Shown in pieces: positions 1,885 through 30,262 of a stretch of 50,680 nt of DNA (its first letter is position 1; every line of letters begins with the position of its first letter). The notes under the pieces are model-generated. The model saw nothing but the letters and a program-made list of their open reading frames with translations, had not been told where the DNA came from and did no database searches. This DNA comes from Candidatus Magasanikiibacteriota bacterium (GTDB lineage: Bacteria; Patescibacteriota; Patescibacteriia; Magasanikbacterales; GWA2-37-8), in contig JBKJTY010000011.1 in NCBI GenBank assembly GCA_046590235.1, forward strand, positions 1-50,680, written 5' to 3'. A program made the position numbers and the translations under genes.

Positions 1885-2736
1885 ATGGACGTTTCAGTAA
1901 TTACGGTCACTTGGAACTCAGCTGGTAAAATCGCTGAACAAATTCGCTCTGTAGAGAAAGCGTTTGTTAAGCGTACCTATGAAGAGTTTGTGGTGGATAA
2001 TGCGTCATCAGATGGCACTGCTGCTATGGTGGAAAGAGATTTTCCACTTGTTAAATTAATGTCTCAAGCACGTAATCGAGGGTTTGGTGCAGCAAATAAC
2101 GAAGCTGCACGACGAGCGCAAGGGAAGTACTTATTATTTCTGAATCCAGATATGCGTTTGGAAGCGGGGAGTCTCGATAAAATCTGTGATTGGATGGATA
2201 ACCGTCCAAAGGCGGGGATTGTCAGTTGTAAATTAGTAAATGAAAAAGGACAAGTAAATAAAGATGCGCTGCCTCGCCGATTTCCAACCTTAAAAGACCA
2301 ACTAATAATTCTTTTAAAACTCCATCATTTCTTCCCAAAATTACTTAACGATTATTTGTTTAGTGATTTCAATCCTGAAAAAGAACAAATGGTCGACAGT
2401 GTGCGCGGATCGTTCATGCTCATGCGCCGTGAAGTTTACCAACAGCTTGGCTGGGCTTTTGACCCTCGTTATTTTATTTGGTTTGAAGATGTTGATGTTT
2501 GCCGTGAAGTCTGGCGCCTCGATTACGCTGTCATGTACACGCCAATTATCAGCGCTGTAGATTATGTCGGCCAAAGCTTTAACCAACGCCCTTCTGTCTG
2601 GAAACAAAAACAATTTTCCGCGAGCATGCTCATCTACTTTAAGAAGTGGGGGCCAGGCTATGCGGCTTTCATGGTGGCCGTGGCGCGACCAATAGGTATT
2701 GCGCTCGTTTGGTTACATTCAAAATTTAAAAAATAA
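1885..2736 (+). CDS. Glycosyltransferase family 2
   Basis: VSVITVTWN, VVDNASSDG, NRGFGAANN, FLNPD, FIWFEDVD motifs. Confidence 0.92.
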   Translation: MDVSVITVTWNSAGKIAEQIRSVEKAFVKRTYEEFVVDNASSDGTAAMVERDFPLVKLMSQARNRGFGAANNEAARRAQGKYLLFLNPDMRLEAGSLDKICDWMDNRPKAGIVSCKLVNEKGQVNKDALPRRFPTLKDQLIILLKLHHFFPKLLNDYLFSDFNPEKEQMVDSVRGSFMLMRREVYQQLGWAFDPRYFIWFEDVDVCREVWRLDYAVMYTPIISAVDYVGQSFNQRPSVWKQKQFSASMLIYFKKWGPGYAAFMVAVARPIGIALVWLHSKFKK

Positions 2737-2748
2737 AGTTAGCAACGG

Positions 2749-2822
2749 TGTCATTCCCGCGAAGGCGGGAATCCAGGACACCCAACATCGTATCCTGGAT
2801 CCCCGCCTTCGCGGGGATGACA
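2749..2822. repeat. Family A palindromic element, empty copy
   Basis: tgtcattcccgcgaaggcgggaatccaggacac-ccaacatc-gtatcctggatccccgccttcgcggggatgaca. Confidence 0.95.
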
Positions 2823-2851
2823 AATTGGCGCAACCCAAGCAATTCACTATT

Positions 2852-3892
2852 ATGTCTAAAGTAATCGTACAATTAGTCACTTGGAATGGCGCTGCGTATA
2901 TCCCGTATCTTTTTGCATCGTTAAAAAATCAAACTTCCAAAGATTGGGAGTTATTTATTTTGGATAATAATTCCAGTGATAATACAGTTGCCGCAATTGA
3001 CGAGGCCTTGAAAGATTTCCCAGTACCAACTCAATTTATAAAAGGTGAAGAAAATCTTGGTTTTGCAAAAGGCCACAATGTACTTTATAAAAAATCTACA
3101 GCGCCCTACGTTCTTCTACTCAACCAAGATGTGTACCTGACTAATGATTGTATTGCGTCGTTGGGATTATTCTTAGATGCTCATGATGACGTTTCAGCTG
3201 TGTCGCCACGTCTCATGCGCTGGCAATTTGATATTGCTGATAGCAACCTCCATAAGAGTTTTACCAACGACATCGACGCGATTGGTTTAAAAGTATTTCG
3301 TAATAGGCGTGTTATTGAACAGTACACCAAACAGTATTGGGGAAGCCTTTCCATGCAGCTACCTAAAGAGTTGGAAGTTTTTGGCGTCTCTGGAGCATTC
3401 CCAATGTATCGCAGAAGCACGGTAGACTCAGTGGCCTATGCTGATGGTGGTATTTTCGATGAATCCTACGTGGCATATAAAGAAGATATGGATTTAGCTT
3501 TTAGGTTGCAAGAAGCTGGTACAAGAGCTTACGTGCTTACCAATGTAGTAGCCTATCATGACCGCACCGGTGCAGGAGCGCTGGAACTCTCAGATCGCGC
3601 GGCTATAGCTAATAAACGAAAGCAGTCAAAATACGTGAGTTATCACAGCTACAAGAATCATCTTCGTACTTTGTATAAACATGAATACTGGCAGAACCTC
3701 CTCCTTGATCTTCCTTGGATTTTGTGGTATGAAATAAAGAAGTTTGGCTATTACTTTTTGCTCGACCGGGCCATTTTAAAAGGCTTAAAAGAGGTTTGGC
3801 AGGACAGAAAAAATTTGAATGAAAAAAGAAGTTTGATTAAAGCTAAGCGTGCCCTAAGCTGGAAAGCCATGCGCCGCTGGTGGACAGTATGA
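2852..3892 (+). CDS. Glycosyltransferase family 2 (start moved from 2699 to 2852)
   Basis: MSKVIVQLVTWNG, ILDNNSSD, NLGFAKGHN, LLNQD, YKEDMDL; the upstream extension only reads through the repeat. Confidence 0.9.
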   Translation: MSKVIVQLVTWNGAAYIPYLFASLKNQTSKDWELFILDNNSSDNTVAAIDEALKDFPVPTQFIKGEENLGFAKGHNVLYKKSTAPYVLLLNQDVYLTNDCIASLGLFLDAHDDVSAVSPRLMRWQFDIADSNLHKSFTNDIDAIGLKVFRNRRVIEQYTKQYWGSLSMQLPKELEVFGVSGAFPMYRRSTVDSVAYADGGIFDESYVAYKEDMDLAFRLQEAGTRAYVLTNVVAYHDRTGAGALELSDRAAIANKRKQSKYVSYHSYKNHLRTLYKHEYWQNLLLDLPWILWYEIKKFGYYFLLDRAILKGLKEVWQDRKNLNEKRSLIKAKRALSWKAMRRWWTV

Positions 3893-8268: not shown

Positions 8269-8360
8269 ATTATTTCAATGCACCATGTAATGATGCAATA
8301 AAGTAGTGCGAGTGGGCCGTCGAGCTTGCGTTCGCTCGACGGCACCTCCCAAGGAAAGAA

Positions 8361-8903
8361 CTAGTACGACCACCTGATCCCGAAAAATTCGGGTTCGAAG
8401 TTGATGATATACATCGCCACCGGTATTGCCACGGAAAGTGCTGCGCCGACAATGAGCACGGCCGCTTTGGTAAAGCCGGTGAAGCGACCCTTCGCCCCGA
8501 AGAACGTGGCGGCGCACATCCCGATCATGAGGAAGGTGCACATGAACGCGCCTGACTTGTCGAGGATAAACAGGTTGGTCACTGGCTCCTCAACGACTTC
8601 GGACTTGAACCGCTGGTTGAAGCGGGTGTCGTAAGGTTCCGTGGTGATCGGTGCCGACATGGGCGTGGCGGGGATCACGATCGTCTCCACCGGCGTGGGT
8701 GGGATAGGCGGCAAGATCTCCCTGATCTCCTGGCGCACTTGCTCGGTAGTAGTCGGTTTGGAAACGGTGTTCTTGGCCGTTTTAGGCTTAGCAACGATCT
8801 TTTTCTCGACTTTGCCGGTCTTTTTTGTCGTAACCGCCTTCTTGGCCGGCTTCTCGACCTTTTGCTGAACGACTTTCTTCACCGTTTCTTGCTTTTGACG
8901 CAT
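8361..8903 (-). CDS. Hypothetical protein: Lys/Ala/Val-rich N-terminus, Pro/Thr linker, two C-terminal TM helices
   Basis: GC-rich ORF with its own promoter (8948-8976) and a 3' hairpin (8316-8343). Confidence 0.65.
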   Translation of the reverse strand: MRQKQETVKKVVQQKVEKPAKKAVTTKKTGKVEKKIVAKPKTAKNTVSKPTTTEQVRQEIREILPPIPPTPVETIVIPATPMSAPITTEPYDTRFNQRFKSEVVEEPVTNLFILDKSGAFMCTFLMIGMCAATFFGAKGRFTGFTKAAVLIVGAALSVAIPVAMYIINFEPEFFGIRWSY

Positions 8904-8947
8904 TCGCCCCCCCCCGGAGTGTGTAAGATGGTAAAAGAGCTATTTTT

Positions 8948-8976
8948 ACCGTAGCAAAGGCGGGAAGAGGCGTCAA
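8948..8976 (-). promoter_or_regulatory. Sigma70-type promoter
   Basis: TTGACG-17 nt-TACGGT on the minus strand, with TG extension. Confidence 0.5.
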
Positions 8977-8983
8977 GACGTTT

Positions 8984-9017
8984 AAAAACAAAACTCCACG
9001 TTGAATCGCGGAGTTTT
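8984..9017 (-). terminator. Intrinsic terminator
   Basis: minus strand AAAACTCCGCG-attcaa-CGTGGAGTTTTgTTTTT. Confidence 0.7.
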
Positions 9018-9027
9018 GAAGTTGTGG

Positions 9028-9085
9028 CACATGGCCCTCGTTATGGCTACAAGTAATTATAGCTATAACGAGTAGGGGCCATGTG
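9028..9085 (-). other. Long bulged stem-loop in 3' UTR
   Basis: CACATGGCC-[CCTA]-CTCGTTATAGCTA-loop-TAGCCATAACGAG-GGCCATGTG on the minus strand. Confidence 0.65.
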
Positions 9086-9120
9086 TGAGCGCCCCGTCGT
9101 CCCGGTTGGGGAAGGGGTAG

Positions 9121-9645
9121 TTATGGAACGATGCCGCTACCTTGCCTTTTTGACAGGGTATCAATCGCCTTGTCGATGTTCTTGTCGAGCAGGTTCAGCT
9201 CTTTCTGTGTGAGCGGTCGATTGCCTGTGTCGTCGTTGCTTGGAACAAGCTGCTTTAGTTTTTGAATCTCAGCTTGTGCGGCCAGAAGGGCTTCTTCAGC
9301 CGCTTTCTTCTCCTCCGCCAACTTGTCGAAGCTCTTGAGAGTTTCCTTGAACGACTTTGACGTCTCGGCGATCGAATCGGCCATTCGGACCATTCGTTCG
9401 TCAGTCATCTTTGAGTTGACCAGCCCCAGTCGGTCGGAGCTCTCTTCGCACTGCTTGTGGAGATCCCTCGCGTTGTGGATGTCTTGGATCATATCATGTT
9501 TGGATCCGAGGGGGTTTGACGTCAGGTCGACGTGCAGACCCATGAACACGAGCGCCATTTGGCACGAATCGGCGCTGAGATCCTTCTTGGGGTTGTTGCA
9601 GCCGAGCACGAACAGGGAAGCGAGCAGAACGATGGAAAGGCGCAT
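9121..9645 (-). CDS. Hypothetical lipoprotein with coiled coil
   Basis: MRLSIVLLASLFVLGC lipobox; SD AGAAAGGA; GC-rich. Confidence 0.7.
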   Translation of the reverse strand: MRLSIVLLASLFVLGCNNPKKDLSADSCQMALVFMGLHVDLTSNPLGSKHDMIQDIHNARDLHKQCEESSDRLGLVNSKMTDERMVRMADSIAETSKSFKETLKSFDKLAEEKKAAEEALLAAQAEIQKLKQLVPSNDDTGNRPLTQKELNLLDKNIDKAIDTLSKRQGSGIVP

Positions 9646-9724
9646 TAGCCAATCCTTTCTGGCGGGGTTGCCGCCTGTGGTCGTACAGGGCTTGTACGTT
9701 GTTGATCGGTAGGATCAACACATG

Positions 9725-9753
9725 AGTGTACTTAAAAACTAGCTTTTTGTCAA
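9725..9753 (-). promoter_or_regulatory. Sigma70-type promoter
   Basis: TTGACA-17 nt-TACACT on the minus strand. Confidence 0.7.
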
Positions 9754-9823
9754 GGCTTGTTAACCCCTGTTCAAATCAGCATTTTTCCTCTATACTAAAG
9801 CCATATACACTATTCTTTAACGT

Positions 9824-14713: not shown

Positions 14714-15952
14714 ATGCAAATTATTGAAAATATTCAGCAAGCCTGGAATATTTTAGTTCGCAATAAAGTGCGGTCCTTTTTGACGATGCTCGGTATTATT
14801 ATTGGTGTTATGTCGGTCGTGGTTATCATGTCTGTTGGTGCCGGCGCGCAGGGGTTGGTTTTGAACCAGGTGAAAAGCTTGGGGTCTAACCTAGTTGGTA
14901 TTTTGCCGGGCAAGTCTGATGATAACGGACCACCTGCGGCAGTGTTTGGTATTGTGGTAACTACCTTAACGGATGATGATGCTAGCGAAATGTTAAAAAG
15001 TGGTTTTGATCATGTCGTGTCTGTCAGTTCGTATGTCCGTGGCGCGAGCACGATGTCCGCCAATGACACAGAAACCGATTCAAGCTATGTCGGTGTCTCC
15101 GCCAGTTATCCAGAAGTTGAAGATGTATCTCTGCTCGATGGTCGTTTTTTTGATGAAGAAGAAAATCGGGGGATCGCTAAAGTCGCGGTGCTTGGCTACG
15201 GTGTAGCTAAAGATTTATTCGGCGACGAGAGTCCGCTCGGTAAAGAAATTAAAATTAAACGAACGCCGTTTCGTATTATCGGCGTTGTTACCGAACGTGG
15301 GGTCAGCGGTTTTCAAAACCAGGATGACCAGGTCTTTGTTCCGGTCAGCACCGCTCAGAAATTATTGCTCGGTATTAATTATGTTAATTTTATCCGCGTA
15401 AAAATCGACGAAGCCCAGAATGTTGACCCAACCGTTGAGCAGATAAAAGACTATTTGCGCGTCCGCCACGATATTGATACACAGGAAAATGATGACTTTT
15501 CAGTCCGCTCCAGTAACCAGGGTCTGGAAGCGCTCACGTCGATCACCGATGCCTTAAAATTCTTCCTCGCAGCCATCGCGGCAATTTCTTTGCTGGTTGG
15601 CGGTATCGGTATTATGAATATCATGCTTGCGGCTGTGGAAGAGCGAACAAAAGAAATTGGTTTACGCAAAGCTGTTGGCGCTACCAACGCTAATATCATT
15701 ATCCAATTTTTAATTGAGACTGTAACGATTACCCTGCTTGGTGGCGTTATAGGGATTGTGCTCGGATCAATTATTTCCGTGGTCGTCGCTGTGGTGGCGC
15801 GTAGCCAGGGCTATACATGGGATTTGGTTATTACGCCAGGATCAATTATTCTTGGTTGTTCCGTCTCTATTGCTATTGGCTTACTCTTCGGCATCACACC
15901 AGCGCGCCATGCCAGCCGTTTAAGTCCTATTGAAGCGCTTCGTTATGAATAA
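14714..15952 (+). CDS. ABC transporter permease (MacB-like)
   Basis: RSFLTMLGIIIG, VGGIGIMNIML, ERTKEIGLRKAVGA, LSPIEALRYE. Confidence 0.92.
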   Translation: MQIIENIQQAWNILVRNKVRSFLTMLGIIIGVMSVVVIMSVGAGAQGLVLNQVKSLGSNLVGILPGKSDDNGPPAAVFGIVVTTLTDDDASEMLKSGFDHVVSVSSYVRGASTMSANDTETDSSYVGVSASYPEVEDVSLLDGRFFDEEENRGIAKVAVLGYGVAKDLFGDESPLGKEIKIKRTPFRIIGVVTERGVSGFQNQDDQVFVPVSTAQKLLLGINYVNFIRVKIDEAQNVDPTVEQIKDYLRVRHDIDTQENDDFSVRSSNQGLEALTSITDALKFFLAAIAAISLLVGGIGIMNIMLAAVEERTKEIGLRKAVGATNANIIIQFLIETVTITLLGGVIGIVLGSIISVVVAVVARSQGYTWDLVITPGSIILGCSVSIAIGLLFGITPARHASRLSPIEALRYE

Positions 15953-17198
15953 ATTTAAAGCGTTATTACTCTCCAGTATTGAACTCGCCTATGGTGCTTT
16001 GTTGCGCCAGCGTTCCCGCACTATCTTAACCATGCTCGCAATTGCTATCGGTGTTGGCGCGGTCGTTACCATCAACGCTGCTGGTGTCGGTGTGCAGAAA
16101 TTCGTGCTTGGCCAGTTAGATGTTTTTGGCGCGGATACATTTTATATAGAAACACGCGTACCAACTTCTAAGCGAAACGGTGGTGGAACAGGAGATGTTG
16201 GTATCACCATCACCAGCATGAAACAAAAAGATGTCGATGCGATGATGAAACACCCAAACGTCATGGCAGCCTTTGGCGCTGTGAATGGACAGGAAGCAGT
16301 GAGTTATCAGGGGCAAATTAAAAAAATTATGTTAATGGGCCGCGGCGCGGCTTTGCCTGAGGTGGAAAAAGCAGCTATTGCCGCCGGCCGTTTTTATACG
16401 CAGGATGAAGAAGATTCATTATCAAACGTAGTTGTTTTGGGTTCTAAAGCAAAAGAAAAATTATTTGGCGATGACAACGCGCTGGAAAAAAATATTTATA
16501 TCAAAGGAAAAACTTTCCGGGTCGTTGGTGTCATGGCCGAGCGCGGTTCGGCTTTTTTCCTGGATATGGACAACGTCTTGTTTTTGCCGACAAAAACCAT
16601 GCAGAAGAAATTGCTCGGTATTGATTACTTTCAGTCTATTCAAGGTAAGTTTATTGATGGCAGCAAATCCGAAACTACTGCCGAAGATATTCGAGAAATA
16701 CTCCGTGAAAATCGCGGTACAACTAATCCAGAAAAAGATGATTTCCAGGTTAATACTACAGCTGACGCGCAGGAAACCCTCACAACTATTACAGGTGGTT
16801 TAACACTACTTCTTATCGCGCTCGTCTGCATTTCTCTGATTGTCGGGGGCGTGGGTATCATGAATATTATGTACGTGTCTGTTGCGGAGCGCACGTTTGA
16901 AATCGGTTTACGTAAATCACTCGGGGCCACCAAGCAGGCCATTCTCTGGCAATTTTTAGCTGAAGCAGTTTTGATTACGATCGGCGGTGGTATCGTCGGT
17001 ATTATCGGTGGCGCGCTGATGGCATTCCTCATCTATGTGACGGCAACATCTTTTGGTTTTAAGTGGATTTACTCGATTACCTTTGGGTCAATTTTCCTCT
17101 CGGTTGGTTTTTCAGCCACTATTGGTTTTATCTTCGGTTTGTATCCGGCGCGACAAGCCTCCAACCTGAATCCGATCGATGCGCTTCGAAAAGAATAA
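15945..17198 (+). CDS. Second ABC transporter permease (MacB-like)
   Basis: RTILTMLAIAIG, VGGVGIMNIMY, ERTFEIGLRKSLGA, LNPIDALRKE; ATG at 15945 overlaps the previous stop. Confidence 0.9.
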   Translation: MNKFKALLLSSIELAYGALLRQRSRTILTMLAIAIGVGAVVTINAAGVGVQKFVLGQLDVFGADTFYIETRVPTSKRNGGGTGDVGITITSMKQKDVDAMMKHPNVMAAFGAVNGQEAVSYQGQIKKIMLMGRGAALPEVEKAAIAAGRFYTQDEEDSLSNVVVLGSKAKEKLFGDDNALEKNIYIKGKTFRVVGVMAERGSAFFLDMDNVLFLPTKTMQKKLLGIDYFQSIQGKFIDGSKSETTAEDIREILRENRGTTNPEKDDFQVNTTADAQETLTTITGGLTLLLIALVCISLIVGGVGIMNIMYVSVAERTFEIGLRKSLGATKQAILWQFLAEAVLITIGGGIVGIIGGALMAFLIYVTATSFGFKWIYSITFGSIFLSVGFSATIGFIFGLYPARQASNLNPIDALRKE

Positions 17199-17229: not shown

Positions 17230-17321
17230 AAACTGCTGGCCTCGTGATACTAAGGACAATAGTTTGAGGGTCGGGCGCGTCAGTCGTGGTGACTGACGCG
17301 CCCTTCCGGTTGAAAGATCAA

Positions 17322-17606
17322 TTACATGATCGGGAGGGTCGGCCTGCGACGCTCTGACTCGGGCACAGGTCCTGCGATGGGGCCTCTGGCGAGTCGGTCG
17401 AGCCGATGGTATTCGTAGTGCCTGTTGACCACGACGACGACCTTCACGACAGCGAGGATCACACCAACGGACCAGAGTCCGATGTTCATGACATCTGGCC
17501 GAACGGAAAAGATCCAGTGCAGGAAAATATCCACCAGGAACGTCAGAATAATTCCCCAGACGATCCAGAACGCGGTGGGCTTACCAAACGCCTTGTTGGT
17601 ACGCAT
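17322..17606 (-). CDS. Small hypothetical membrane protein (2 TM)
   Basis: GC-rich 94-aa ORF, purine-rich RBS, 13-bp perfect hairpin downstream (17273-17303). Confidence 0.6.
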   Translation of the reverse strand: MRTNKAFGKPTAFWIVWGIILTFLVDIFLHWIFSVRPDVMNIGLWSVGVILAVVKVVVVVNRHYEYHRLDRLARGPIAGPVPESERRRPTLPIM

Positions 17607-17812
17607 GCGAACCTTCTTTCGGTCTCCGTCTGCCAGGCAAACGGGATGGAAGGGGGCGGTGAGGACTTACGCAGCGATGTCCACTGGACATCTTGGAGTA
17701 CACCCGGGTGGGTATATCCTTTAGCACCTCATGCCTTGTTTCAAGCCTATAGTATTAGCTTGCGCAAAATTTATACTATCTGAAATACAAACTTTATGCA
17801 AGTTAACGGATA

Positions 17813-17841
17813 AGTATAGCATAAAAACGGCCTTTTGTCAA
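17813..17841 (-). promoter_or_regulatory. Sigma70 promoter, giving a ~200-nt leader
   Basis: TTGACA-17 nt-TATACT with TG extension on the minus strand. Confidence 0.75.
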
Positions 17842-17878: not shown

Positions 17879-17907
17879 AAAAAACCGCAGAAATATGCGG
17901 TTTTTTT
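17879..17907 (-). terminator. Intrinsic terminator of the HD1 unit
   Basis: aaaaaaccgca-gaaata-tgcggttttttt. Confidence 0.75.
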
Positions 17908-17912
17908 GCGAA

Positions 17913-17990
17913 TCATCGCCACCAGGCTGGTTACTAGGGTAGTAAACAACATGGTAGGTAAGCGACGATGTATTGTGCCCCCTTTCCACC
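17913..17990 (-). ncRNA. Candidate conserved structured 3'-UTR element (copy after HD1)
   Basis: Aligns with 18822-18897 and shows compensatory base changes. Confidence 0.6.
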
Positions 17991-18002
17991 GTACAATGAA
18001 CG

Positions 18003-18704
18003 TTACGCAGCGCGCTTCTCCTCAGGAACATTAGCATGGTTGGTCAGGAAATCAGTTGCCCAGGTATGCATCTCAGGTGTCCAGATCTCGTCGAAACCGG
18101 GGATTTTCTTGGCATAGTGCGCCATCTCGTCGATCTGCTTGCGAAGCACGTGGGTCAGGATGACCTCGTCTCCATGCACCACGAACGATTCTGAGGCGTA
18201 CTTGATGTAGTCGAGCCGTTCAAGCGCCGCAAAGATCAGAGCTTCATGCGAGTACTTCTCCTTCAGGGCGTTCATTACTACTCGTGCATCGTCCGGGAAA
18301 AGGTGATTGTCCCCCAGGCAGAACTGGAGAAGAAACGCTGCTTCGAGTCGTTCGCGAACGTCATCATCCAAATCCTGGATGCGTCGACGAAAGCCTAGAA
18401 ACTCTTGGACGTCGATCTCTTGCCGCTTGTTGATAAACGGCGTGTCGTGACCGATCTCGCCCTCACCAATGTCATGCAAGTGAATGCAGGACAGGATAAG
18501 CTCATTATCGAGCTTTGGAAAGTGCCACTGGAGCTTTGGCAAAGCGGTCATGGCAAGAAACATGAACGCGTACGTGTGCTCCAGGTTGGTCTGCCCGCGG
18601 AGTGCCTGGTTACGAGCCCGATGATTTCCCCAGCGGAAAACCTTGGTAAGACTCGTCTGAAAATGTGTCCAGACGCCGAGAAGGGCAAGGAACGATTTCG
18701 TCAT
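18003..18704 (-). CDS. YfbR-like HD-domain phosphohydrolase (HD1)
   Basis: LTKVFRW, QTNLEH, LHDIGEG..GHD, LERLD; SD AAAGGAG. Confidence 0.82.
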   Translation of the reverse strand: MTKSFLALLGVWTHFQTSLTKVFRWGNHRARNQALRGQTNLEHTYAFMFLAMTALPKLQWHFPKLDNELILSCIHLHDIGEGEIGHDTPFINKRQEIDVQEFLGFRRRIQDLDDDVRERLEAAFLLQFCLGDNHLFPDDARVVMNALKEKYSHEALIFAALERLDYIKYASESFVVHGDEVILTHVLRKQIDEMAHYAKKIPGFDEIWTPEMHTWATDFLTNHANVPEEKRAA

Positions 18705-18746
18705 GTTGTTCTCCTTTCGGGAGAGTGTGGGTGGGATTGCGTTAGC

Positions 18747-18775
18747 AGACTATCAGTTTACCGCTACTTTGACAA
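18747..18775 (-). promoter_or_regulatory. Promoter of HD1
   Basis: TTGTCA-17 nt-TAGTCT on the minus strand. Confidence 0.55.
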
Positions 18776-18784
18776 GTTAAAAAT

Positions 18785-18810
18785 AAAAACACGCCCAAAG
18801 GCGCATCTTT
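18785..18810 (-). terminator. Intrinsic terminator of the HD2 unit
   Basis: minus strand atgcgcc-ttt-gggcgtg-tttttattttt. Confidence 0.6.
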
Positions 18811-18821
18811 ATAATTGGCTT

Positions 18822-18897
18822 TCATCGCCACCACGCTTATCACTATTTATTAGTGAGAAGCATGGTAAGGAGGCGACGAAGATTATTCGTTTCCACC
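18822..18897 (-). ncRNA. Candidate conserved structured 3'-UTR element (copy after HD2)
   Basis: Aligns with 17913-17990; 7-bp basal stem, 5' bulge, 16-bp upper stem. Confidence 0.6.
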
Positions 18898-18920
18898 AAA
18901 CCATTCTCGTGCCGTTTAGA

Positions 18921-19640
18921 TTAAGCGGCGACGATCTCAAGCTTTTCGGGCGGAATGTCCTTGTGTTCGTCGAGGAACTTGAGCGAACGGATCCGCTCAT
19001 CGTGGGTCCAGATCGTGGCGGACTGGTCGCAGCTCTTTGCGAGCTTATCGAGCTCCGGCAACAAGTTCCGGAGCACATGCACATGCATCGTGCGCGCTTC
19101 GTAGAGCGTGTCCATGTCAGCGGCGTAGCAAACCGCTTGGTAGGCCTCGATGGTTTTGAAAACCAGCGCTGCCGTGCGATAGTGCGCGTGCTGCTGCATG
19201 TGTCCCTGCATGATCTCCTTGGCCGAATCAGGAAAGTTCTGGGGCATGTTGACGCTGAGCGGCAAGAGGTAGTAACTCTCAAGACGCGCTCGATCGTCCT
19301 TGGGCAAGCCTTCGGTCAGCTCGAGGAAGGCGTTGTACTCGTTCAGGTCGTGTTCAGGCGTACGGTCACGGTGGGGGATGTCCCGGCCCTCACCCACGTC
19401 CTTGGCGTAGATGTGCTGGCCGAGGTAGTGCATCGCGAGCGACTTGAGGACGATGTCGCCGCTCACGATGTTCGTCCGGTTAACGCGCTCGAGAATGGGT
19501 ACTGCCATGATGAGGAGCTGGCCGACATGTTCGGCCACTGACTGCGGTTGCAGATCGTACAGATCCGTATAATTACTCCACCGAAAAACTCGGCTGAGCC
19601 GTTCGCGTGCCCAACGCATCTTCCGTGTCTCTGACAACAT
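18921..19640 (-). CDS. YfbR-like HD-fold paralogue with degenerate HD motif (HD2)
   Basis: LSRVFRW, QSVAEH retained; HD replaced by HYLGQ...KDVGEG; SD GGAGG. Confidence 0.78.
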   Translation of the reverse strand: MLSETRKMRWARERLSRVFRWSNYTDLYDLQPQSVAEHVGQLLIMAVPILERVNRTNIVSGDIVLKSLAMHYLGQHIYAKDVGEGRDIPHRDRTPEHDLNEYNAFLELTEGLPKDDRARLESYYLLPLSVNMPQNFPDSAKEIMQGHMQQHAHYRTAALVFKTIEAYQAVCYAADMDTLYEARTMHVHVLRNLLPELDKLAKSCDQSATIWTHDERIRSLKFLDEHKDIPPEKLEIVAA

Positions 19641-19753: not shown

Positions 19754-21547
19754 ATGTCCGACACGCAAGTTATCAAAGACCGCCTCGATATTGTCCAAAT
19801 TATTGGCGAATACATCACTGTCAAAAAGGCGGGCACGAATTGGAAAGCAAACTGTCCGTTCCATCACGAAAAAAGCCCCTCCTTTATGGTGCACCAGGAT
19901 AAACAAATCTGGCATTGTTTTGGTTGTGGCAAAGGCGGCGATGTATTTTCTTTTGTCCAAGAAATTGAAGGCATGGATTTTCCGGAAGTATTAAAATTAC
20001 TTGCTAAACGCGCTGGTGTTGAGATTGCTGCGTATAAATCTGATGGAGATAACGGACTTCGAGCACGATTGTTAGAAATTAATTCTACTGCTGCCTATTT
20101 TTTTCATCACATGCTCCTTGAAATGGAAGCATCAAAAGCTGCTCGCGACTATTTAGAACGACGCCAAGTTAAACCGGAAACAATTAAGGACTGGCAAATT
20201 GGTTTTGTTCCAGACCAGTGGGAACTTCTCACAAAATATTTAGTTAAAAAAGGATACGCCCTCGAAGACATGGTAACGGCTGGCCTCACTATCAAACGTG
20301 AAGGTGCTGATGTGCAAACGGGCAAAGGTTATTACGATCGTTTTCGTGGCCGTGTTATGTTTCCAATTTCAGATGCGCACGGAAACATCGTGGGCTTCAC
20401 GGGTCGCGTATTAGTTGAGACAGAAACATCGGGCGGTAAATATGTAAATACACCGCAATCACCGCTGTACGACAAGTCTAGAGTCTTGTACGGCATACAC
20501 AAAGCAAAGACAGCAATCAAATCCAAAGATCTTGCCGTGCTGGTAGAAGGCCAAATGGATGTGGTTGCTTGTCATCAGGCAGGGATGACTAATGTTGTTG
20601 CTGCTTCGGGCACCGCTCTAACTGCCGAACAAATTAAATTATTAAAACGATATACACCAAACATTGCAATGGCCTTTGACGCGGACGCTGCAGGGCAAAA
20701 TGCTGGCAAGCGTGGTATTGGAATTGCTATGGAAGAGGGGATGAATATTCGTGTTATTCAAATCCCACCAGGTTTTGCAAAAGATGCTGATGAATGTTTG
20801 AAAAAAGATTCGGCAGTGTGGTTTAAAGCCGTTGAAGGTGCGAAAGGTGTCATGGATTGGTATTTCGCTGTTACACTTTTGAATCTCAACCGTAATGATC
20901 CTAAGAGAAAGCAGGAAGCCGCAGCGCTACTCCTCACAGAAATTGCGCGTATTCCGTATGCAGTTGAGCGCGATGAATGGGTTAAACGACTAGCCGAAGA
21001 ATTAGCTATTGAAGTTAGTATTCTTCGTACTGAACTAAAAAAATTAAATGTGGCTACAAAGCCTACGGCTAAAGCCGCTCCAGCTGCGCCGACTGCGCCC
21101 GTAATTGCGATCCCCCAGAGCCTTCTTGATCAGTTTGGGCAGGAGCTTTGGTCACTGCTCTTGAAATATCCGCAAGAATATGGAAAACTACGTGAAAAGC
21201 TCAAACCGGGGTATTTTGAGGATGGAGCCATCCGAAGCCTTTACGAAACCGCAGAAAGCTTCTATAATAAGGACACAAACCTAGATTTAGAGGCTTTACG
21301 GCATTATTACCATAAAGAAGGTCTGGAAAACAGCATAGATATCCTCCTTTTAAAGCCGTATAAGAACTTTGATGAGATCAACCCGGCTGAAGCTGGGAAA
21401 GAGTTACAGACGATAGTTGAGCGTTTAAAAGAAGAGTGGCGCAAACGGCGCGGTAAGGAAATTGCCCGGGAACTTAGTTTAGCTGAGAAATCCGGCGATA
21501 AGGCAACGCTCGAAAAACTCTTTATAGAATTACAAACATTACAATAA
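19754..21547 (+). CDS. dnaG: DNA primase
   Basis: [11 protein letters not shown]...HCFGC zinc finger, [32 protein letters not shown]. Confidence 0.97.
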
Positions 21548-29469: not shown

Positions 29470-29552
29470 AGCTTGACTTTTTGTTAATAAAATGCTAAGA
29501 TTTTGGGCTTCTTGGCCCCCCGTAAGGGCTGGAGCAATACGAGGGAAACGAA

Positions 29553-30119
29553 ATGGATAAGGATGAGGCATTATGGATTCTCAATGAAGGGGATTCGACA
29601 AGTATGCAGTTTCGTGAGGCGATTGCTTATTTCCAGAACCTGCTCGACCCCAAGGCTCCGGCCGGAACGGTGCTCTGCAATGCCATCATGCGCATCTGGC
29701 CGACCCCGGCTTTCGAGGGTGTACTGTTGCGCGAGGTCAATGGCGAATACCAGGTCTACTTGCGTCGTCGGGCTGAGAACGAAGCCTACCCACTTCAATA
29801 CCACTCTCCCGGCGTGCTTTACTGCAATGCGGACGAGTCCGACGAGACCGCGGCCAAACGCCTCTTCGAGGAGTTTGGTTGCGAATTCGACTACGAACAG
29901 ATCGATTCGTTGGTGGTTAATGATGTGCGTGGGCGACTGCGATCAGTGATCTATCTGCTCACCACTCGAAGCGAACCTCGTCTCGATGAGCGTCACGGAT
30001 GGTTCCCGGTGAACCGTTTGCCGGAGAAAACCATAGAGCATCACCGTCTCCAGGTGATTCCGCGTGCTGTGGCTAAGGTCATGGTTCGAGCCAGCAGGGC
30101 GAAGTGTGGTGATAAATGA
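29553..30119 (+). CDS. Nudix-fold hydrolase, GC-rich insertion
   Basis: VYLRRR, HSPG...DESDETAAKRLFEEFG degenerate Nudix box; promoter TTGACT-17-TAAGAT at 29473-29501. Confidence 0.65.
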   Translation: MDKDEALWILNEGDSTSMQFREAIAYFQNLLDPKAPAGTVLCNAIMRIWPTPAFEGVLLREVNGEYQVYLRRRAENEAYPLQYHSPGVLYCNADESDETAAKRLFEEFGCEFDYEQIDSLVVNDVRGRLRSVIYLLTTRSEPRLDERHGWFPVNRLPEKTIEHHRLQVIPRAVAKVMVRASRAKCGDK

Positions 30120-30262
30120 GGATGTTGGGCCCCGGTGGAAAGTCATTCTTGACGAGTACACCGGGGCTATTCTATTTGTAAAGGTAAACCGTTGCTTTTT
30201 TAAGCAAAAAGTGGTACTGTGCAAGTACTTACTAGCCTGTTTTCGTACAGCAAAAAGGATTT

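Follow-up and report, generated by a model that had tools for sequence, protein, structure and literature searches.

Two neighbouring genes for HD-domain proteins (HD1 and HD2) in a Candidatus Magasanikiibacteriota bacterium are each followed by a bulged hairpin. This hairpin is a selected, strongly covarying structure which is found in no known RNA catalogue and is restricted to one order. The window analysed here is the whole stretch of 50,680 nt (GenBank assembly GCA_046590235.1, contig JBKJTY010000011.1, positions 1 to 50,680), taken from a genome of 917 kb and 96% completeness. Patescibacteria, or the Candidate Phyla Radiation (CPR), form a huge, mostly uncultured bacterial branch with tiny genomes, and to our knowledge almost nothing has been established about their gene control and gene exchange. 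An earlier note, made from the letters of the window alone, had proposed an undescribed functional RNA (or single-stranded DNA) motif partnered with HD phosphohydrolases. The structure has been borne out, and covariation together with a G·U bias on the sense strand favours RNA, but the pairing with HD enzymes is refuted. On the pattern of the sequences, and with about even confidence, we read the hairpin as a cis-acting RNA 3′-end module (a terminator, stabiliser or processing site) of moron-like accessory-gene units rich in GC at third codon positions (GC3).

The hairpin behind both HD genes

Between dnaG (19754–21547, plus strand) and a macB-type permease gene (15930–17198, plus strand) lies a slot with three GC-rich genes on the minus strand, in surroundings of 42% GC. 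These are HD1 (18921–19640), HD2 (18003–18704) and an open reading frame (ORF) for a 94-residue membrane protein (17322–17606). Each forms a separate unit with its own terminator and promoter-like site; a scan located the sites of HD1 and the membrane ORF, and that of HD2, which falls below the scan threshold, was read by eye. The HD2 site is kept as TTGNCA-17-TAGTNT in the related loci L006, L008 and L026. After both HD stop codons the same order of parts is found on the minus strand, as the earlier note had described: a G-rich box, a bulged hairpin of 58–60 nt and a separate intrinsic terminator. The hairpin consists of TCGTCGCY, a 5-nt bulge (TCCTT or TACCT), ACCATG, a variable upper stem, CNTGGT and GGCGATGA. 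Its basal helix is TCGTCGCY/RGCGATGA, the upper helix starts with ACCATG/CNTGGT, and the bulge is confined to the 5′ strand. Directly 3′ of the two hairpins stand AAAGCC and TTCGCAAAAAAA without a U-tract, and the terminators follow 9–15 nt downstream. The features of the two HD units are as follows; R1 and R2 are the covariance models described below.

18921–19640, minus: HD1, a catalytically degenerate HD paralog, GC3 0.77; HD dyad replaced (HY here, MY in orthologues)
18887–18903, minus: G-rich, C-poor box, copy 1 (ATGGTTTGGTGGAAACGA), 7–23 nt upstream of the hairpin
18821–18880, minus: bulged hairpin, copy 1: TTCGTCGCC, bulge TCCTT, ACCATGCTT..AAGCGTGGT, GGCGATGAA; 76.6 bits with R1, 69.3 bits with R2
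18783–18812, minus: intrinsic terminator of the HD1 unit (terminator scan)
18747–18775, minus: predicted promoter-like site of the HD2 unit (TTGTCA, 17 nt, TAGTCT)
18003–18704, minus: HD2, an HD-domain protein with intact H...HD motifs, GC3 0.65
17975–17990, minus: G-rich box, copy 2 (GGTGGAAAGGGGGCAC)
17912–17969, minus: bulged hairpin, copy 2: ATCGTCGCT, bulge TACCT, ACCATGTTG..CAGCCTGGT, GGCGATGAT; 76.7 bits with R1, 66.5 bits with R2
17879–17906, minus: intrinsic terminator of the HD2 unit (terminator scan)

Comparison with shuffled sequences gave a folding z of −6.6 for copy 1 and −1.7 for copy 2 (91-nt frame). In eight copies from five related genomes 95.8% of the cells were paired and seven pairs had changed on both sides, which none of 500 shuffles matched. 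The compensatory pairs of the upper stem noticed earlier are therefore real. In fact, the upper stem is rewritten between orthologues with its pairing kept, as seen in loci from four other metagenomes. DNA contigs of these organisms derive from the runs SRR21621043, SRR22388307, SRR11476867 and SRR22388068. The element is kept behind HD genes in L006, L026 and L027, and both HD genes are present in L006 and L026. In L008 it is kept behind HD2 and the HD1 copy is gone; the deletion removed about 110 nt, left a terminator and looks like an ordinary event between TACAC repeats. Both window boxes carry GGTGGAAA; this literal box, which the earlier note had included in the motif, is restricted to this genome, although the orthologues have other G-rich boxes at the same place. 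Translation of a small ORF from ACCATG in the stem was ruled out, since L006 reads ACCAGG and the frames differ.

The repeat is not a leftover of recent duplication. The HD1 and HD2 proteins are 27–28% identical and their third codon positions agree at the chance level (0.32 versus 0.30 expected from composition), whereas the two copies of the element agree in 67% of 64 columns and hardly vary around the bulge. An ancient tandem duplication may have copied the whole unit, so that both HD genes came to carry the hairpin, and selection would have kept its structure since.

Further observations concern the HD genes themselves. HD1 and its orthologues lack the HD dyad (HY or MY) and HD2 has it, as would be expected of an active/inactive paralog pair; both proteins share the C-terminal tail (V/I)PEEKR(A/V)A. 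The HD2 family is small (about 300 clusters at 50% identity), its close homologues come from a handful of metagenome contigs only, and neither NCBIfam nor a sequence search of solved structures gave a useful name for the HD proteins. In L008 the public annotation places a 221-residue gene on the opposite strand over the HD1 orthologue (2232–2942, plus strand, with a probable TTG start). Moreover, in the same-genus genome G001 (L046, minus strand) a decayed HD2-type element follows a small non-HD ORF just before the macB-side terminator; it keeps GGCAACAATACACCGTCGCC and the upper stem CTACTTTG...CTAGAGTAG, and its 3′ basal arm is gone.

The hairpin family and its upstream genes

The family was collected with two covariance models, R1 built from eight copies and R2 from 16 sequences; matches below about 33 bits, possibly generic hairpins, were left out of the counts, and ORF calls in related loci are mechanical. 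R2 found matches in 34 of the 240 genomes of the order, 29 of them among the 100 in the window's family and five in a second family, with one to six dispersed copies per genome. The window genome has only three copies, the third on contig C2 (3411–3471). The family hairpin was found in none of about 390 genomes from other orders of the class, and 401 genomes sampled across the class gave nothing at E ≤ 1e-4 beyond the window's own genome; this null result sets the lineage range and also serves as a false-positive control. No match to the elements was found in Rfam 15 at E ≤ 10 in the window region, none reached the gathering score in the whole window, and none was found at E ≤ 0.1 for ten other member loci. 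A BLAST search of the window's own genome with the element returned the two copies and a similar terminator, nothing else. Exact-pattern scans of genome, metagenome and viral contigs gave chance matches only, in GC-rich coding DNA of unrelated taxa, with poor stems and no terminator. The element was not found in the literature on Patescibacteria RNA motifs and GC-rich cassettes.

Covariation extends through the family. Double changes occur in 15 pairs (61 cells) among 16 copies and in 22 of the 26 pairs (171 cells) among 32 high-scoring members, of which 92.8% of the cells are paired. The covariation score of these 32 is 0.63, against 0.20 in shuffles and 0.08–0.12 when the partners are slid; their alignment was fitted to the model, and MAFFT-based counts (8 and 16 copies) agree with it. 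The consensus reads aaNNtCGCc, a G-poor bulge of 3–7 nt, ACCNtNNTgNtt..loop..AnnanGGT and gGCGannTT. The basal helix of 9–12 bp ends in CGCC/GGCG, the bulge lies on the 5′ strand alone, and the upper helix has ACC/GGU at its start and includes a segment rich in wobble pairs, of the UUUGUUU/AGAUAAA type. The G-rich box is located about 10–22 nt upstream of the hairpin; the fraction of G is 0.45–0.59 at −23 to −9, and a G-poor spacer follows; the box differs in sequence in every member, and many are GGAGG-like. A second tandem pair of hairpins was observed in G019 (L054/L035, contig C19, minus strand, 1501–1564 and 1930–1993). The two stand about 430 nt apart and flank a small GC-rich ORF, mirroring the HD1/HD2 arrangement.

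The genes that precede the hairpin decide the question of the HD enzymes. Both paralogs carry the element and the HD2 orthologues of L006, L008, L026 and L027 keep it, which made an HD-specific partner RNA, bound or processed by the HD proteins in an antitoxin-like way, a tempting idea. However, HD homologues of 33–37% identity in other contexts are followed by ordinary terminators only; the hairpin is absent from HD homologues in L002, L003, L004 and L019, as from those in G009, G006, G022 and the P0006 contigs. The loss at HD1 of L008 points the same way. Conversely, R1 matched diverged copies at sites without an HD gene, in other genera of the window's taxonomic family, and across the 34 genomes at least 20 unrelated gene families precede the hairpin. 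These include PNP_UDP_1 (a PNP/UDP-type phosphorylase), a Sigma70_r4 fragment, an MFS_1 transporter, a Hexapep (DapD-like) transferase, Cys-rich secreted proteins and many orphans. The partnership is thus refuted, removing a wrong functional link, and an RNA specific to HD proteins is left with a very remote chance.

What these upstream ORFs have in common is their composition and orientation: GC3 is mostly 0.55–0.92, compared with 0.3–0.5 in neighbouring genes, and nearly all are co-oriented with the hairpin. Across the genome lie about 100 short islets of high GC (200-nt windows with at least 55% GC), for example at 8291–9735 and 29510–30179 of the window. Most of those examined consist of a small gene that has a promoter of its own and is followed by a GC-rich 3′ hairpin and a terminator; the bulged family is present in three only. 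The GC-rich units in the dnaG–macB slot differ from genome to genome within the genus. Such units recall the PeSLs (promoter-early stem-loops) of T4-type phages, small non-coding cassettes with a strong sigma-70-type promoter and a stem-loop terminator which flank non-essential ORFans in hypervariable regions (Arbiol et al., 2010, PMC2839356). Like PeSL units and phage morons, those described here sit in variable slots, deviate in composition and are autonomous, each with promoter, gene and terminator. They fit moron-like expression cassettes with conserved non-coding frames. Two further features of the window belong here:

17322–17841, minus: third GC-rich unit of the slot, with promoter 17813–17841, a conserved structured leader of about 200 nt and the 94-residue membrane ORF
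9029–9084, minus: weak relative of the hairpin family, 27.7 bits, behind the GC-rich cassette gene 9121–9645

The third unit ends in a plain GC hairpin (17273–17303) and a terminator, and the bulged family is not represented there. Its leader (17607–17812, minus strand, about 200 nt, from the promoter to the ORF) is shared with L006, L008, L026 and G001, a genome of the same genus, although the ORF diverges. RNAalifold gave 50 pairs, of which 13 show compensatory changes, and the hairpin GAUGUCC-N4-GGACAUC is invariant; the leader has no match in Rfam and is a candidate riboswitch-like or attenuator leader.

The gene 9121–9645 (cassette 9121–9790, minus strand) has a counterpart in another genus (L053 of G004, contig C19). 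An identical 23-nt leader precedes both, comprising a hairpin and a Shine-Dalgarno sequence (GGCGGCAACCCCGCCAGAAAGGA), and is present in two of the 240 genomes of the order, these two only. The lipoprotein signal peptides share 12 of 20 residues and both genes are followed by a family hairpin (27.7 and 70.6 bits), and the mature proteins are unrelated. This suggests either exchange of the cassette frame or extreme divergence of the protein bodies.

Possible roles of the hairpin

Strand and position constrain the role of the hairpin. The stems of the family contain 128 G·U pairs against 18 A·C single mismatches, and the sense strand folds better in 49 of 58 members (mean −32.4 kcal/mol, compared with −26.9 for the antisense strand). 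Covariance models likewise score the sense strand 30–50 bits above the antisense strand. In 56 of 58 members the hairpin is preceded by the end of a same-strand ORF, mostly some 20–80 nt away. In 12 of 58 a U-tract follows directly, and at least 36 are followed within 90 nt by a separate terminator. The window scan found no promoter-like site between the stop codon and the element, and about 19 of 53 members face a convergent next gene. Taken together, these features place the element in the 3′ untranslated region (UTR) of the upstream gene, either as the terminator or immediately ahead of it, and the convergent neighbours rule out a leader or attenuator of the downstream gene.

The module proposed here would belong to self-contained units of promoter, gene, hairpin and terminator in one Patescibacteria order and would act in cis on the mRNA, making or protecting the mature 3′ end. 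In the U-tract variants the hairpin itself would terminate transcription. Copies with a separate terminator, such as those behind both HD genes, could instead be a stable barrier which stops 3′ exonucleases, or a processing site where RNase III cuts one strand, as it does in phage T7 mRNAs. The RNase III gene (rnc, contig C5, 34768–35154) is present in the window genome, and the length of the bulged helix (22–27 bp) would fit a substrate of this enzyme, which calls for some 20 bp or more of double-stranded RNA. The invariant CGCC-bulge-ACC junction may be the docking site of a conserved host factor. Several points weigh against this reading. Bulges and G·T pairs also occur in single-stranded DNA recombination sites, so that strand asymmetry favours RNA without proving it. 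Termination alone cannot explain the keeping of the window copies, because they lack a U-tract and are followed by a good terminator. A plain stabiliser needs neither the invariant junction nor the G-rich box, and these features therefore indicate a specific, putative partner. Finally, L008 lost its HD1 copy yet kept the gene, so the element is dispensable there.

A role in DNA is the other use to which such a structure could be put. Here the hairpin, in single-stranded DNA or as a frame with the adjoining terminator and promoter, would be a site of cassette exchange, working like an integron attC site or the PeSL cassettes. The content of the slot varies within the genus, one hairpin family stands behind unrelated genes, and the 9121–9645 and G004 cassettes share leader, signal peptide and hairpin around unrelated bodies. 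This pair is the only hint here of PeSL-like shuffling, in which the non-coding cassettes recombine (mini-circles). The one-sided bulge, moreover, provides strand asymmetry of the kind that attC sites use, and the PeSLs set a precedent, being promoter/stem-loop cassettes by which ORFans are shuffled (PMC2839356). Nevertheless, there is no attC consensus (RYYYAAC/GTTRRRY); the copies are scattered singly, one to six per genome, and not in arrays; and those within a genome share micro-homologies only. The loss in L008 looks like an ordinary deletion and not an excision at the hairpin. The family's conserved G·U pairs, its unvarying orientation along the gene and its set position ahead of the terminator match the prediction for an RNA element. 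We give this recombination frame a minor chance, and the mobility signal raised in the earlier note survives as a minority possibility at the level of the cassette. Equally doubtful is a combination of the two, an undescribed Patescibacteria cassette system whose 3′ boundary is the hairpin, serving both as RNA 3′-end signal and as DNA exchange point with its junction read by a lineage-specific protein. The portable frames, carrying unrelated GC3-rich genes, would then be a 5′ consensus promoter with leader and a 3′ G-rich box with bulged hairpin and terminator, and cassettes would move between slots and between genera via the hairpin site.

Regulation by base pairing has a small chance. In this case a trans-acting small RNA from the 3′ UTR, released by processing and made of box, hairpin and terminator, or a cis-acting anti-Shine-Dalgarno regulator, would pair through its box or bulge with mRNAs or with the Shine-Dalgarno sequence of its own or the next gene. 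A single-stranded box followed by a stable hairpin and a terminator is the layout of known 3′-UTR small RNAs, many boxes are GGAGG-like, and CTCCTT and CCTCC of copy 1 are complementary to the nearby AAGGAG and GGAGG. The earlier note had assigned this AAGGAG to HD1; CTCCTT is indeed its reverse complement, but the Shine-Dalgarno sequence belongs to the downstream gene (18003–18704). The bulge has changed in orthologues (TCCCCT, CCT) where the Shine-Dalgarno sequences are conserved, for which reason an anti-Shine-Dalgarno role of the bulge was rejected, and HD2-type bulges match their own Shine-Dalgarno sequence by 3 nt only. The boxes have no common seed, and a small RNA with its own promoter disagrees with the window scan. 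Box and bulge pair only weakly (mean z = −0.69) and in the window copies not at all; a pseudoknot of the two was not adopted, and L045 (8 nt) alone is striking. Regulated read-through, in which a factor-bound hairpin controls the following terminator and couples the next gene to the upstream one, has a slim chance. It agrees with the window, where each element directly precedes a terminator and the next unit is co-oriented, but not with the convergent neighbours elsewhere, the 12 hairpins that carry a U-tract themselves or the separate promoters of the downstream units, and no alternative pairing of element and terminator stems was seen.

Whichever role applies, this is an uncatalogued, lineage-specific and statistically strong RNA structure, for which a covariance model and about 40 high-scoring loci are ready. 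It marks the 3′ end of GC3-rich accessory genes by which related genomes differ, and is therefore a handle for finding such cassettes. It also offers a route to testing the expression or stabilisation of cassette genes, a dedicated factor and the mechanism of exchange.

Comparison with known systems

With intrinsic terminators the hairpin shares the GC-rich base of the stem at the end of a gene and, in the 12 members mentioned, the direct U-tract. It differs in a stem two to three times longer than the usual terminators of the genome and in the conserved bulge. Moreover, in the window copies and in most type-A members the U-tract is missing and a second, ordinary terminator comes next. As an intrinsic terminator would have its U-tract within 0–2 nt of the hairpin, the window copies were not counted as such. 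The RNase III hairpins of phage T7 early mRNA (R1.1 type) and 3′ stabiliser hairpins of the repetitive extragenic palindromic (REP) type stand between genes or at mRNA 3′ ends. The hairpin resembles them in its 22–27-bp helix with an asymmetric unpaired stretch and in the protection expected of a 3′-terminal hairpin. Here, however, the unpaired stretch is on one strand only, and the CGCC/GGCG and ACC/GGU flanks and the G-rich box have no counterpart. In the icaR-type 3′-UTR anti-Shine-Dalgarno element of Staphylococcus aureus a C-rich unpaired motif is complementary to the Shine-Dalgarno sequence. Copy 1 alone has such a motif in its 3′ UTR, and neither the orthologues nor the other family members preserve the complementarity.

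Integron attC sites are similar in being conserved at the level of structure, as imperfect hairpins of about 60 nt right after unrelated cassette genes with asymmetry of one strand. An attC site is recognised by its R″/R′ boxes (RYYYAAC...GTTRRRY) along with an unpaired central spacer and extrahelical bases. The present hairpin lacks the R/L box consensus and has invariant CGCC/GGCG and ACC/GGT in place of GTTRRRY. The dispersed copies and the separate promoter of each gene also differ from attC arrays, whose cassettes lack promoters and stand beside an intI integrase (no search aimed at integrase genes was made), and the G·U-rich stems and fixed pre-terminator place point to RNA. REP elements and miniature inverted-repeat transposable elements (MITEs) would form many near-identical copies with target duplications and terminal inverted repeats, and were rejected on the basis of only three copies in 917 kb and stems that differ and covary. 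The RNA antitoxin-like partner suggested by the earlier note found no support. Type III toxin-antitoxin RNAs are tandem repeats upstream of a constant toxin, whereas single copies stand here downstream of diverse genes. A kink-turn, which has a 3-nt bulge and then tandem sheared G·A pairs, was likewise dismissed: the bulge is followed by nearly invariant Watson-Crick A-U, C-G and C-G pairs (29, 29 and 32 of 32 members).

The nearest published analogue is the PeSL cassette of T4-type phages. The present units differ from it in lying on a cellular chromosome of Patescibacteria, and their hairpin is long and bulged with an invariant junction and strong covariation, often stands apart from the real terminator, and occurs in diverged rather than near-identical copies. 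In both cases, as in phage morons, the genes differ in composition from their surroundings, and the hairpin, terminator and promoter between HD1, HD2 and the third unit would form punctuation of the same kind.

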